Source: a virus (Duplodnaviria > Heunggongvirae > Uroviricota > Caudoviricetes). From it: a stretch of 58,566 nt of DNA. The stretch lies in the IMG/VR virus record IMGVR_UViG_3300043425_000840, one strand, 5' to 3'. The notes below the pieces were generated by a model. It was given only the letters and a program-made list of their open reading frames with translations, was not told where the DNA came from and ran no database searches. Shown here piece after piece: positions 12,078 through 57,415 of this stretch. The number at the start of each line of letters is the position of its first letter. The stretch's first letter is position 1. Position numbers and translations under genes: made by a program.

Positions 12078-12848
12078 ATGGCGTTACAACAGATTAATTG
12101 GTTACAAATCGACACAGCATACGTTCCTTCAGGTTCTGAAGTGAATTTAGGTGCTATCTCGGGTTCGTTACATTCCATCTATGCTGACCATATATACATT
12201 TCAGGACAATTATTATCAAATAGTGATGAGTTAAATTATTGGTCGGCGTCGATTAAAGAAGCAATTGAGACTACAGGGTCAAATCTAACCGTAAAGGGTA
12301 ATTTAATAGTTAAAGGTACAACAACCGCAGTAGAGTCGAATGTTGTTACAATTGGTGACAATATTGTTGAGTTAAATGGGACTGAGGCAGCGTTCGGTGG
12401 TTTATTAGTTAAAGACCCTACATCACCTAACACTATTTCAGGTTCATTACTTTGGGATACACTCAATGATAAGTGGATTGGGGGTCCTTTAGGTAGTGAA
12501 GAGGGGTTTATACAAGACACACAATTCACAAATTTTTCAAGTTCAGTTGCGATTGCCATCGAAGAGAGTGGTATATGGAGACCAACAGGTTCATATTATG
12601 CAACAACAAATGATTTACAAGTTACAGGTTCTGTAAGAATAAAAGGTGATTTATTAGTTGAGGGACAAACAACATTAGTCCAAAAATTAGACCCAAATGT
12701 TGAGTCACTTGTGGTTTCTGGTGCTATGAATGTTGTTCAAAATCAAATAAATGCACAAGTCATTGCGGCGTCTCTTAAAATACAGGGATTAGGTGAAATG
12801 GCTGACGTAAGTAAATTTGCTGTTATTGACTGTGGTGGATTTTTCTAA
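12078..12848 (+). CDS. Virion structural/tail-fibre-related protein
   Basis: S/T/G-rich beta-strand repeats; shares the DNIVELN...FGGLLV.D...SLLWD..NDKW module with the next three genes. Confidence 0.7.
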   Translation: MALQQINWLQIDTAYVPSGSEVNLGAISGSLHSIYADHIYISGQLLSNSDELNYWSASIKEAIETTGSNLTVKGNLIVKGTTTAVESNVVTIGDNIVELNGTEAAFGGLLVKDPTSPNTISGSLLWDTLNDKWIGGPLGSEEGFIQDTQFTNFSSSVAIAIEESGIWRPTGSYYATTNDLQVTGSVRIKGDLLVEGQTTLVQKLDPNVESLVVSGAMNVVQNQINAQVIAASLKIQGLGEMADVSKFAVIDCGGFF

Positions 12849-12860
12849 TTAAAAATAAAG

Positions 12861-12867
12861 TATTTAT
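12861..12867 (+). promoter_or_regulatory. TATTTAT putative late promoter
   Basis: AAGTATTTATAT, 22 nt before the ATG at 12890. Confidence 0.5.
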
Positions 12868-12889
12868 ATAAAAGAATTAAAATTACAAT

Positions 12890-55769: not shown

Positions 55770-55770
55770 A

Positions 55771-56340
55771 ATGTTTACGAGGTACATTGAAAATTTTTTA
55801 ACTCCTGATGAGTGTAAGTCTTTGATAAAGTTAGGTGAATCTATTGGGTTAATTCAAATGAAGTCATCACTTGTTATCAATGGAAAAGTAATGACTGAGA
55901 ATGTTGCGTACGAGGGTAATAAACGAATGGGTACTTATTTTACTAATGAAATGTTGGGTATACCAATATTGAAAAGTTTAACTGATAAAATCATCACATT
56001 ATCTAATGAATTGAATCCGTTTAATGGAATCACGTATAATCGAATACACAATTATTCATTTAATAGATACGGTGAGGGAGATTTTTTAGATTGGCATCCA
56101 GACAGTCACGAAATTGTAAATGGGGCAACAATAACCTATATAATTCAATTGAACGACCAATATGAGGATGGTGATGTAAAGTATATTGTAAATGAAATTG
56201 AACATTCAGTACCTAAAAAAGAAGGTAGCGTATTCATCTTCGATTCAAATATTGTACACTCTGTTAAAGAAATAACAAGTGGGGTTAGATATTCAATAAA
56301 CGTATGGCCCTCCAAACTAATTAAAAAATCATTAATCTAA
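55771..56340 (+). CDS. 2OG-Fe(II) oxygenase (P4H-like); C-terminal KKSLI
   Basis: FLTPDEC, FLDWHPD, LNDQYEDG, HSVKEITSGVRYS. Confidence 0.9.
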   Translation: MFTRYIENFLTPDECKSLIKLGESIGLIQMKSSLVINGKVMTENVAYEGNKRMGTYFTNEMLGIPILKSLTDKIITLSNELNPFNGITYNRIHNYSFNRYGEGDFLDWHPDSHEIVNGATITYIIQLNDQYEDGDVKYIVNEIEHSVPKKEGSVFIFDSNIVHSVKEITSGVRYSINVWPSKLIKKSLI

Positions 56341-57131
56341 TGTTAGTTGAAAATAAGTTTTTTTATTTGAGTTTACCGAGATGTGCGTCAACTGCCTTTC
56401 ATTATTCTTGTTTGGTTAATGATGTTAAAATTCAAACACATAATGGGGAGTGGGAGTTAGCGAATTCAGATATTGATTTTAAATCGGTGGATAAAAAAGA
56501 TTTGATGAACTATATCTATCACGGACACGAATCTTTAATTGATTTACAGAGTAAGTTTGGTAGAAACTATCCGATTATTGCGGTTAAAAGACAAAGACAC
56601 GAGAGATTTTATTCATTATATAAACACGTTTTATTTGATTTACAAAGAATGGGGTTTCATAAAATTTATAAAAAATTCTCCAAACTATCGTTGAATGAGT
56701 TATTCTTTTTTACAAAAGAAGATGTTGCAACTAAAAAACAAAGATGGGACAAGATATGTGAGTTCTTAATGGATTTAAAGTTGATTGACGAAAAAATAGA
56801 TATTTCAGTAACATCAAAATTTAAAAAGTCGGAAGAAGAATATTTTAAATCAAATACCAAAGGGTACGCGGTTAATATGATTGATATCTTATTAACTCCA
56901 TTATCTAATTGGACAAATAATGACCAAACAATAATTTGGTTTGACTTCAATGAATTGAATAAATTGGAAGAATGGGTGTCGAATATTTTAGAAAAACCTT
57001 TTGAACTTCATTCGGTTAATTCGAGTAAACATATGGAATGTGTAATAACTTTAGATGATGATTTTATAAAAAAGTACAACAGTATTTATGATTATTACGA
57101 CCTACCGAAATTAACCAAGACTTTAATATGA
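56340..57131 (+). CDS. Sulfotransferase-like protein; C-terminal KTLI
   Basis: FYLSLPRCASTAF (5'-PSB loop), VKRQRHERFYSLY (3'-PB-like R...R..S) and HSVNSS. Confidence 0.65.
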   Translation: MLVENKFFYLSLPRCASTAFHYSCLVNDVKIQTHNGEWELANSDIDFKSVDKKDLMNYIYHGHESLIDLQSKFGRNYPIIAVKRQRHERFYSLYKHVLFDLQRMGFHKIYKKFSKLSLNELFFFTKEDVATKKQRWDKICEFLMDLKLIDEKIDISVTSKFKKSEEEYFKSNTKGYAVNMIDILLTPLSNWTNNDQTIIWFDFNELNKLEEWVSNILEKPFELHSVNSSKHMECVITLDDDFIKKYNSIYDYYDLPKLTKTLI

Positions 57132-57415
57132 TAGATTATAAAGAAATTTTTGAGGCTTGGAAAACATCATTTAACCCAACACCTAAACAAGAGGAATTGG
57201 CAGAAAAAAGATTAAATGTTTGTTTGGGTTGTGATTACAGAAAAGAAGTTTTGAGGGGCGTGAAGTGGTCTGCTTACTGTGGTGATTGTGGGTGTCCTCT
57301 AAATAAAAAAGTATTCTCTAAAAATTTCAATCCTTGTACTAAGGGTTATTGGGAAGAAGTGGATTCAGATTACATAACACCTGTTAAAAATAAGAATAAG
57401 AGTACTTTAATTTAA
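57128..57415 (+). CDS. Small Cys-rich metal-binding protein; C-terminal KSTLI
   Basis: RLNVCLGC...CGDCGCPL..K......C..GYW. Confidence 0.75.
   Translation: MIDYKEIFEAWKTSFNPTPKQEELAEKRLNVCLGCDYRKEVLRGVKWSAYCGDCGCPLNKKVFSKNFNPCTKGYWEEVDSDYITPVKNKNKSTLI

Follow-up and report, generated by a model that had tools for sequence, protein, structure and literature searches.

A gene island among fibre genes

The stretch of DNA analysed here, IMG/VR record IMGVR_UViG_3300043425_000840 (58.6 kb in full, with a guanine-plus-cytosine content of ~32%; hereafter the window), carries four phage fibre genes, a block of structural genes and then a long island of enzyme genes, which is the subject of this study. 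From position 26097 on nearly all genes encode enzymes, ~35 of them in the window after the fibre/LamG block, and the island runs past the window to a total of ~40 enzyme genes (Table 1). An earlier reading of the sequence by a model (the original prediction) described ~31 kb of enzyme genes ending at 57415 as a self-contained system that builds one glycan coat on the fibres. The enzyme run is there, but it continues: in G002, a contig 93-99% identical, six more enzyme genes follow and then a fibre of 1612 amino acids (aa), so that the island measures ~39 kb and is bracketed by Ser/Thr-rich fibres. The distal fibre contains 32% Ser+Thr, is a paralogue of fibre F4 (E 2e-191) and has a Peptidase_S74 chaperone end.

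The same fibre-island-fibre layout was found in G004. It recurs in the complete 335.6-kb G005, in which fibres with 29-37% Ser+Thr and five LamG genes precede a 44-kb island, and an S74 fibre with 32% Ser+Thr comes after it. In G003 the island has been shifted as one unit to the opposite flank of the fibres, to which it is still adjacent. Moreover, the sole S74-type fibre gene of G005-G007 lies 18-36 kb from the carbamoyltransferase gene, and linkage to the fibres persists even where a relative's carbamoyltransferase shares only 55% identity. The original prediction had staked itself in advance on island and fibres staying together in relatives, and in G002-G007 the linkage held. A core string is present in >40 contigs in shuffled order; it comprises the sugar cassette, a glycosyltransferase (GT) of the GT-B fold, the carbamoyltransferase, the adenosine 5'-phosphosulfate (APS) kinase with its partner, a 496-aa ATP-grasp-Hint (ligase-Hint) protein and oxygenases with a zinc-ribbon and a sulfotransferase-like protein. 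Cassettes come and go, as in G004, which is without the E1/RmlC cassette yet has five radical S-adenosylmethionine (SAM) paralogues. A comparison along the proposed lines over 34 loci associated island genes with higher fibre Ser/Thr content (rho 0.45, p 0.008); it is crude and confounded by relatedness.

The four fibres of the window, F1-F4, are mutually paralogous (phmmer E 1e-9 to 5e-82) and match the PHROG annotation 'virion structural protein'. All four had been described as dense in Ser/Thr; their contents exceed the ~11% of the island enzymes, ranging from 18 to 31%, but truly dense are F3 and F4 only, whose long repeats are of the TSTGSLNSFTSS and PSGLVSGSSQI type. Gly-X-Y collagen periodicity was looked for in the fibres and not found, and a 'collagen-type' reading, in which GT25 and prolyl 4-hydroxylase (P4H) enzymes would form hydroxylysine-galactose, was dropped for this reason. 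A promoter-like motif, AGTATTTATRT, lies 25-45 nucleotides upstream of each fibre gene with 0-2 mismatches (positions 12049, 12859, 14903 and 18517); a second candidate promoter motif was not significant. Strong terminators with a GC stem and a T-run follow the glutaredoxin gene (hairpin near 12000) and F2 (near 14860). The LamG proteins predicted beside the fibres were recovered as well, one with Laminin_G_3 at 2e-14 (23045-23878) and its paralogue at 22262-23035. They belong to a block with a Gly-rich-domain protein (Gly_rich_2 at 7e-13) and matches to phrog_8510 and phrog_2295, the gene order of which is kept in relatives.

The IMG/VR relatives are contigs of 310-335 kb with a completeness of up to 100%, and they contain a T4-type gp23 capsid gene (E 1e-63). 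A megablast comparison of 36 kb of the window with 50,697 phage records gave zero matches. DnaK/DnaJ heat-shock genes have been described as a feature of all members of the aquatic jumbo 'moraphages' (PMC12619734). A 'moraphage' identity was rejected, as a search with a working positive control found no HSP70/DnaK in five relatives, of which four have a completeness of 93% or more. Because the relatives have a gp23 capsid gene and lack DnaK, the source is an uncultured giant T4-like phage lineage distinct from the published 'moraphages'. More than 100 contigs of this lineage were recovered, and it is abundant in aquatic metagenomes.

Table 1. Coordinates of the annotated features in the window (TM, transmembrane; ORF, open reading frame; NDP, nucleoside diphosphate; 2OG, 2-oxoglutarate; SDR, short-chain dehydrogenase/reductase)
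Feature	Position	Strand	Remarks
D12-class adenine methylase	8635-9471		in the window
NusG paralogue	9498-10022		96 bits NusG, 58 LoaP, 52 UpxY, every score below cut-off
Thioredoxin and glutaredoxin	11407-11995		directly upstream of first fibre gene
Fibre F1	12078-12848	+	256 aa, Ser+Thr 18%
Fibre F2	12890-14833	+	647 aa, Ser+Thr 21%
Fibre F3	14980-18498	+	1172 aa, Ser+Thr 28%, Ser/Thr-rich repeat shaft
Fibre F4	18562-22260	+	1232 aa, Ser+Thr 31%, Ser/Thr-rich repeat shaft
Two LamG-type structural proteins, Gly-rich-domain protein (553 aa), small conserved ORF	22262-25926	+	
u247 (putative DxD transferase), Methyltransf_24 methyltransferase, weak GT2_4-like protein	26097-28418	+	block after structural genes in relatives too
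Two GT7 (beta4GalT-like), each with LamG lectin-type domain	28596-31477	+	Glyco_transf_7N/7C and Laminin_G_3
Two twitch-domain radical SAM enzymes around free 247-aa gene	31474-35110	+	second radical SAM enzyme ends NII (tag)
SEK-type GT-B paralogue and u134	35110-36794	+	GT-B paralogue tagged, ends QNLI
u134	36390-36794		134 aa, helical, DUF6165/DUF4254-like (atlas search)
PhyH-type 2OG oxygenase (untagged)	36842-37618	+	PF05721 1.6e-22
NDP-sugar tailoring cassette	37648-45200	-	E1-beta-like, SGNH-like, SDR, SDR-2OG fusion (tagged), SEK-type GT-B, E1-alpha-like, RmlC-like 3,5-epimerase, SDR
SEK-type GT-B paralogue, SGNH-like protein, DUF6734 protein	45240-48266	+	
O-carbamoyltransferase, NodU/NovN/TobZ type	48276-49913	+	Carbam_trans_N/C 1e-57 to 1e-62; NovN 1e-87
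GT25 N-terminal-type transferase, u263 GT8-like DxD protein, second (weak) DUF6734 protein	50028-52312	+	
Truncated APS kinase, 120-aa HxGH nucleotidyltransferase, 72-aa two-TM ORF	52337-53335	+	
Wholly tagged run	53325-57415	+	P4H-type 2OG oxygenase, short flavin halogenase-like, two more 2OG oxygenases, sulfotransferase-like, Cys-rich zinc-ribbon-like
ATP-grasp-Hint-Cys-rich-tail protein, 5' two-thirds	57507-58566	+	cut by window end

Tagged and untagged enzymes of the island

Unrelated enzymes of the island share a C-terminal tag, K-x-[S/T/N]-L-[I/L]-COOH, which occurs in the window between 33656 and 57415 and in orthologues (L082-L160). Nine window enzymes end in [L/I]-I after K-x-[S/T/N/E], compared with 0 of 22 genes upstream of the island, and every gene of the 53325-57415 run bears K-x-[STNE]-L-I. 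In seven families, namely three oxygenases, the halogenase-like, sulfotransferase-like and zinc-ribbon proteins and the fusion of an SDR with a 2OG oxygenase, the tag is kept in 89-100% of orthologues at 20-45% identity. Some members of the GT-B and radical SAM families bear it too; it is missing from the fibres and LamG proteins, from GT7 and the carbamoyltransferase, and from the sugar cassette and the genes for 3'-phosphoadenosine 5'-phosphosulfate (PAPS). Since the codons of the final Leu and Ile and the stop codons vary, selection acts on the tag peptide. The island is thus composite, with an untagged sugar/donor set beside a tagged tailoring set. The tagged enzymes co-travel with the ATP-grasp-Hint protein and its Cys-rich tail, and the single glycosylation pathway of the original prediction does not agree with this division. 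A motif acting at gene junctions on the DNA level was considered and rejected, as the codons vary and the tag persists at such low protein identity; an overlapping ATGA start accounts for part of the final Ile. The tag agrees with the pattern of class-I PDZ ligands; it is also reminiscent of the cargo peptides of encapsulins.

In a 93% identical relative (L082:18529-20019) the ligase-Hint protein has its full length of 496 aa. Its predicted structure (predicted local distance difference test, pLDDT, 76) comprises an ATP-grasp domain closest to YgiC (Z 9.8) and glutathionylspermidine synthetase (Z 9.2), followed by a Hint domain that superimposes on an intein (Z 15.0, root-mean-square deviation (rmsd) 2.2, 144 aligned) and on bacterial intein-like (BIL) domains (Z 14.6 for the C. 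thermocellum BIL domain, Z 14.4 for BIL2; rmsd 2.1-2.2 overall). The Hint domain has no N-terminal Cys/Ser nucleophile and an invariant C-terminal His-Asn; therefore, cleavage is plausible only at its C-terminal end. After His-Asn a hypervariable tail of 25-46 residues follows, which always contains 6, 8 or 10 Cys and is Trp-rich as well in the clade of the window. Co-occurrence of the halogenase with a Trp-rich tail stood at 5/6 versus 0/15 loci, a pattern from one clade that was not used as evidence. A tblastn search of cultured phages for a homologue of the ligase-Hint protein found none.

Among the tagged enzymes, the halogenase-like protein (414 aa) matches Trp_halogenase PF04820 at 1e-89, PrnA at 3e-57 and cyanophage VirX1 at 3e-49. 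Its GGGTAG and EPLE motifs are present, WMFKIP stands in place of WxWxIP, and with 414 instead of ~530 aa it is without the ~120-aa C-terminal Trp-binding module. With this motif and without this module it does not qualify as a flavin-dependent tryptophan halogenase; judging by its sequence, it is a halogenase-like flavoprotein with a predicted substrate other than free Trp. The sulfotransferase-like protein gave a weak profile match (heparan sulfate 2-O-sulfotransferase, 1e-4). The window contains five 2OG domains (PhyH, the SDR-2OG fusion and three of the P4H type) and two radical SAM enzymes, which score 315 and 284 bits against NF033640 (cut-off 170) and carry CxxxCxxC at residues 134 and 136. 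No family match was obtained for the free 247-aa gene between them, earlier called LamG-like. This N-terminal-twitch family is expanded in the lineage, with five tandem paralogues in G004 (L163-L167) and a 940-aa double-length gene in G005 (254640-257462). Of the decorating enzymes listed earlier, the methyl- and carbamoyltransferase, the five 2OG domains and the two radical SAM enzymes hold, and the APS kinase does so by its motifs and Pfam match but not by its equivalog score; the sulfotransferase is a weak call, the halogenase lacks its Trp module, and the two SGNH calls come from a GCSFT motif only.

The untagged set contains genes for a putative donor synthesis. As had been proposed, an RmlC-like epimerase (6e-33), three SDRs and a pair of subunits related to pyruvate dehydrogenase (PDH) E1 have family matches, all under equivalog cut-offs. 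The E1 alpha-like and beta-like subunits are truncated (210 and 182 aa), and there is no E2 or E3. Neither a sugar-1-phosphate nucleotidyltransferase nor an assignable 4,6-dehydratase was found in the island, nor were a flavin reductase and a full ATP sulfurylase. These gaps, apart from the dehydratase, and an initiating protein GT that was likewise not found lead us to give up the description of the system as self-contained. The carbamoyltransferase is the island gene of widest conservation (79 viral contigs), and its nearest solved relatives are NovN, GdmN and TobZ. The APS kinase (144 aa; APS_kinase 8e-17, 62 bits against a Pfam cut-off of 21; NCBIfam equivalog 64 bits against 138.7) has intact motifs, namely the P-loop, DGDDLR (DGDxxR) and SPY (SxxSPY). 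It is always directly followed, at 45 loci or more, by a 120-aa NMNAT-like nucleotidyltransferase with HxGH and ISGTxIR motifs (2e-6). Together they could make up a minimal route to PAPS, with the small enzyme standing in for ATP sulfurylase. Behind them lies the two-TM 72-aa ORF (53114-53335).

Pieces of the island were also seen in contigs of metagenome-assembled genomes (MAGs) binned as Saccharibacteria, Pelagibacterales and Klebsiella (L175-L178); in L176 the Methyltransf_24, GT2, two GT7, radical SAM, SDR, RmlC and E1-alpha genes stand in the order of the island. These are probably mis-binned phage DNA. A scan of genome contigs with the E1-alpha-like protein gave no bacterial counterpart of the sugar cassette, just those four MAG contigs.

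Of the ~11 GTs counted originally, two GT7, the GT25 and three GT-B folds stand. The GT7 pair (E 1e-17 to 1e-19) scores 61-70 bits with PF13733 and PF02709 against cut-offs of 23-27, and its nearest solved relatives are beta4GalT7 and beta4GalT1 (7e-29 to 3e-24; beta4GalT7 at 7e-29 over residues 11-156). No homologue of the GT7-LamG proteins was found in cultured phages by tblastn. The GT25 domain is above the Pfam cut-off (3e-19). The three SEK-type proteins form one paralogous family with a GT-B fold (model pLDDT 88, Z 10-11.7, rmsd 4-5 A, 255-300 aligned); the closest folds are those of GT-B enzymes, with GT10 fucosyltransferases among them, and an atlas search gave GT10 as a lead at 0.80. 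A profile of this family gave no useful match among PDB sequences. The remaining candidates did not hold at the same level: the GT2_4-like protein is under the Pfam cut-off (3e-4), u263 is GT8-like by language-model features only, and two DUF6734 proteins and u247 were named for a motif only. The DUF6734 profile gave no useful match among PDB sequences, and hhalign comparisons with the GT8-like family of u263 returned probabilities of 2% and 17% for DUF6734 or u247. The small helical protein u134 is the most conserved island gene, with 75-86% identity where the carbamoyltransferase has 55%, and it adjoins the E1/RmlC genes in relatives.

All of these enzymes appear to be soluble. Pfam and NCBIfam searches of the island gave no match to an initiating phosphoglycosyl transferase, flippase, polymerase or ABC exporter, which bears out the claim that Wzx, Wzy and ABC exporters are absent, and no island ORF of at least 80 aa contains a 19-residue hydrophobic stretch.

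The acceptor and competing explanations

The explanation that we favour, tentatively, is a conserved accessory island in the fibre cluster that works in the host cytoplasm in two parts and acts on soluble protein or peptide acceptors made by the phage. The untagged part would make and transfer sugar donors, and the tagged part would carry out the tailoring. The RmlC-like enzyme and the three SDRs would act on a host NDP-hexose by epimerisation and reduction, and the sugar would probably receive a two-carbon branch from the split PDH-E1-like thiamine pyrophosphate pair, as with Plm8/Plm9 for paulomycose. Sugar transfer would be the task of GT-A enzymes (the two GT7-LamG proteins, the GT25 and the GT8-like protein) and of the GT-B enzymes, and hydroxyl groups would be capped by the O-carbamoyltransferase and the methyltransferase. 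PAPS for the sulfotransferases would come from the APS kinase, with the mini nucleotidyltransferase possibly serving as sulfurylase. The tagged enzymes, i.e. the P4H-type oxygenases, the short halogenase-like flavoenzyme, the sulfotransferase-like and zinc-ribbon proteins and some GT-B and radical SAM enzymes, would be recruited to, or act on, the neighbouring ATP-grasp-Hint protein, and their oxidative work would be directed at the protein or peptide part. A Hint cut after the C-terminal His-Asn would free the hypervariable cysteine-rich peptide. The order of these steps and the docking are our proposal. The end product is most likely a decorated host-recognition component, either the Ser/Thr-rich fibres, the cysteine peptide or both.

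Such a phage-made acceptor fits best because the enzymes are soluble, the oxygenases are of the P4H type, the halogenase is without the free-Trp module, the radical SAM enzymes are of the twitch type, a ligase-Hint protein is present and the position in the fibre cluster is fixed. As to which acceptor, the original prediction named the fibres, and no result identifies them as such. The ligase-Hint protein, as substrate or hub of the tagged enzymes, is a candidate equal to or better than the fibres.

Several points weigh against this explanation. None of the results names any acceptor, and an O- or N-glycosyltransferase that could start a glycan on a protein was not recognised in the island. 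Within a single lineage, synteny may reflect descent and not function; fibre regions are hot spots for accessory genes in general, and Ser/Thr-rich repeats are frequent in fibre shafts with glycans or without. Peripheral GTs of surface-polysaccharide pathways are also without membrane segments, and solubility is therefore compatible with action on host lipid-linked intermediates as well. The AGTATTTATRT motif of the fibres was searched for in front of the island genes and not found, so that it gives no sign of co-expression of fibres and island. The two DUF6734 proteins and u247 enter the GT count through DxD motifs alone. Besides, the predicted complex of the ligase-Hint protein with the tagged oxygenase 2OGc scored 0.49 (best control 0.01). 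Of 80 solved complexes 58 pass the mark used for such scores, as do 2 of 110 mismatched pairs; scores that pass but do not exceed 0.60 comprise 7 of the 80 solved complexes and both of these mismatches. The runs agreed in at least 38% of contacts with a partner pLDDT of at least 77. By the tool's own calibration the model thus gives the docking weak support.

The reading closest to the original prediction is that all island enzymes build one branched, sulfated and carbamoylated glycan coat on the Ser/Thr-rich fibres, comparable to that of Megavirinae. On its side, four relatives have paralogous Ser/Thr-rich fibres at both ends of the island, the combination of GT7 and LamG recalls the catalytic-plus-lectin architecture of mucin-type ppGalNAc transferases, and the weak top Foldseek matches of the GT-B family include the Ser-rich-repeat O-GlcNAc transferases SdgB and GtfA (E 3e-3 to 3e-2). 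By Z-score, however, the GT-B folds are generic or GT10-like, the tag divides the island into two sets, and the initiating transferase such a coat would start from was not identified in the island. We therefore regard a single coat as unlikely.

Host-envelope remodelling deserves a similarly guarded judgement, and we would give it a small but real chance. Here the soluble enzymes would act on lipid-linked intermediates of lipopolysaccharide (LPS) or capsule and use host flippases and exporters, and the altered surface of the infected cell would serve superinfection exclusion or affect grazing or adsorption traps. GT25, GT8 and GT10-like enzymes are typical LPS outer-core decorators. The LPS or cell-wall gene clusters of the large cyanophages P-SSM2, S-SCSM1 and S-SCSM2R, which hold up to 13 GTs and 22 such genes, have been read in this way (PMC12801897). 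These phages also have 2OG oxygenases in number and carbamoyltransferases of the Nol-like kind. Nevertheless, the island contains no initiating phosphoglycosyl transferase, ligase or exporter and lies inside a structural fibre cluster, whereas the carbamoyltransferase and oxygenase homologues of P-SSM2 are scattered in the replication module. Moreover, P4H-type oxygenases, a halogenase without the free-Trp module and the ligase-Hint protein suit protein or peptide substrates better.

A bolder form of the favoured phage-made acceptor centres on the ATP-grasp-Hint protein as a hub on which the tag-docked enzymes assemble. A self-cut cysteine-knot peptide would be hydroxylated and sulfated and would receive a branched carbamoylated sugar and in some cases a halogen. 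It would then be ligated to the fibres by the ATP-grasp domain, or displayed with them, as a fast-evolving receptor-binding element. In this detailed form we consider the proposal rather improbable.

Release of a natural product without a role in the virion, either a metabolite or a peptide resembling ribosomally synthesised and post-translationally modified peptides (RiPPs), in each case with sugar, carbamoyl, sulfate and perhaps halogen groups, is suggested by nearest solved relatives from antibiotic pathways (NovN, GdmN and TobZ; PrnA and VirX1; the PDH-E1-type branched sugars of paulomycin) and by the likeness of the self-cleaving cysteine-rich tail to a precursor peptide. The conserved location between fibres and the absence from the island of polyketide synthase, non-ribosomal peptide synthetase or terpene scaffold genes and of exporter or immunity genes make this improbable. 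Still less can be said for a hypervariable dumping ground of unrelated auxiliary genes with no single product: gene order and content are indeed shuffled among relatives and whole cassettes are variable, but a stable core string in >40 contigs, the mutual dependence of donor, transferase and sulfate-activation genes and a selected tag common to unrelated folds leave it very little room.

Hypermodification of the phage DNA with glycans or other groups, which the original prediction had listed as an alternative, is the least credible explanation, since GATC and CATG are fully purged from the window (0 observed against 186 and 193 expected), which indicates DNA exposed to restriction and not shielded by bulky groups. 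Phage GTs can place multi-sugar glycans on hydroxymethylated bases (Pyle 2024, as far as cited in PMC12619734), such systems employ 2OG oxygenases and GT-B enzymes, and the T4 alpha- and beta-glucosyltransferases are among the GT-B fold matches (Z 10-10.7). The proposed search for synthesis of hydroxymethylated deoxynucleoside monophosphates was made in relatives. Here G002 and G004 have a single ThyA homologue, which is split in G003; at 348 bits it exceeds the thymidylate-synthase equivalog cut-off of 325 and thus scores as the true enzyme, and it lies beside a Dcm methylase. Furthermore, a D12 adenine methylase is encoded in the window, no TGT/DpdA was found in three relatives in a search with a working positive control, and the island lies in the fibre cluster, ~20 kb from the nucleotide-metabolism genes. 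A Tet_JBP search gave zero matches, and its control also matched nowhere. GCGC and CTAG occur in the window at ~0.3 of expectation. The D12 methylase does not target GATC, as this site is absent from the window.

Relation to known systems and upstream genes

Virus-encoded glycosylation clusters are already known from mycobacteriophages, Megavirinae and cyanomyoviruses. Freeman et al. 2023, in what PMC12619734 relays of that work, used mass spectrometry to show that capsid and tail-tube subunits of mycobacteriophages are modified at their C-termini by phage GTs. By that account, the likeness lies in cytoplasmic GTs with which a phage modifies structural proteins of its own and which need no exporter, much as we propose for the island. 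It describes few GTs in the mycobacteriophages, in contrast to the ~40 enzymes beside fibres found here, which include donor synthesis, sulfation, carbamoylation and oxidation and are known from their genes alone. Megavirinae have clade-specific fibril glycosylation clusters of ~6-12 genes (PMC10117803; review PMC9614988). They share with the island virus-encoded pathways for rare-sugar nucleotides and GTs thought to coat the fibrils, in cassettes that vary by clade; however, these are eukaryotic viruses without an enzyme tag or a ligase-Hint protein, and the island is phage-borne and larger. A further resemblance is to the large T4-like cyanophages P-SSM2, S-SCSM1 and S-SCSM2R with their 'LPS' or cell-wall synthesis clusters, which have gp23 of the same type, many GTs, NDP-sugar epimerases, RmlC, a Nol-like carbamoyltransferase and 2OG oxygenases (PMC12801897). 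Compared with them the island is consolidated between fibres and adds the tag, the halogenase-like protein, the PAPS genes, the twitch radical SAM enzymes and the ligase-Hint protein, at protein identities of 31% or less. As to scale, the large soluble set without exporter stands, but with 13 GTs among 22 genes of this kind in S-SCSM2R there is a cyanophage precedent (PMC12801897).

For single components, similar genes have been described in bacteria. Two-carbon branching of deoxysugars by PDH-E1-type enzymes is known from Plm8/Plm9 in paulomycin and AviB1/B2 in avilamycin (PMC4802897), where, as in the island, E1 alpha and beta occur without E2/E3 beside a 3,5-epimerase and SDRs; the E1 subunits of the island are truncated by comparison and their activity is a prediction. 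The Hint fold with C-terminal His-Asn before a variable peptide resembles that of BIL and pre-toxin Hint domains, but unlike BIL domains it has no N-terminal nucleophile, is fused to an ATP-grasp ligase and has neighbours with a shared C-terminal tag. The neighbouring radical SAM, oxygenase, halogenase-like and sulfotransferase-like genes recall the tailoring sets of RiPP pathways. In the literature we found no published description of a ligase-Hint-peptide layout and none of the combination of new features in the island. New are the size and chemical range for a phage, the conserved place between Ser/Thr-rich fibres, the expansion of twitch radical SAM enzymes, the shared tag and the ligase-Hint hub.

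Should the product be placed on the virion, no self-decoration system known from a phage would be larger or chemically richer, and the island would approach giant viruses in scale. Sulfation, carbamoylation, branched sugars and perhaps halogenation would then bear on the tuning of adsorption, the evasion of hosts and grazers and survival in water. If the host envelope is the target, the island would be a phage-borne surface-remodelling kit of unusual size. The tag and the ligase-Hint-peptide hub suggest a way of organising a multi-enzyme pathway that has not been described before, and in an abundant aquatic lineage such chemistry may matter ecologically.

Upstream of the fibres the window encodes an amidase, the D12 adenine methylase, the NusG paralogue, an AAA protein, thioredoxin and glutaredoxin. 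The NusG paralogue stands 2 kb before a ~28-kb run of genes on the same strand; it could act as a processive antiterminator for a long transcription unit of fibres and island. The placement of the thioredoxin and glutaredoxin genes is of note given the cysteine-rich peptide encoded in the island, and a glutaredoxin gene stands directly before the first fibre gene in G004, too.

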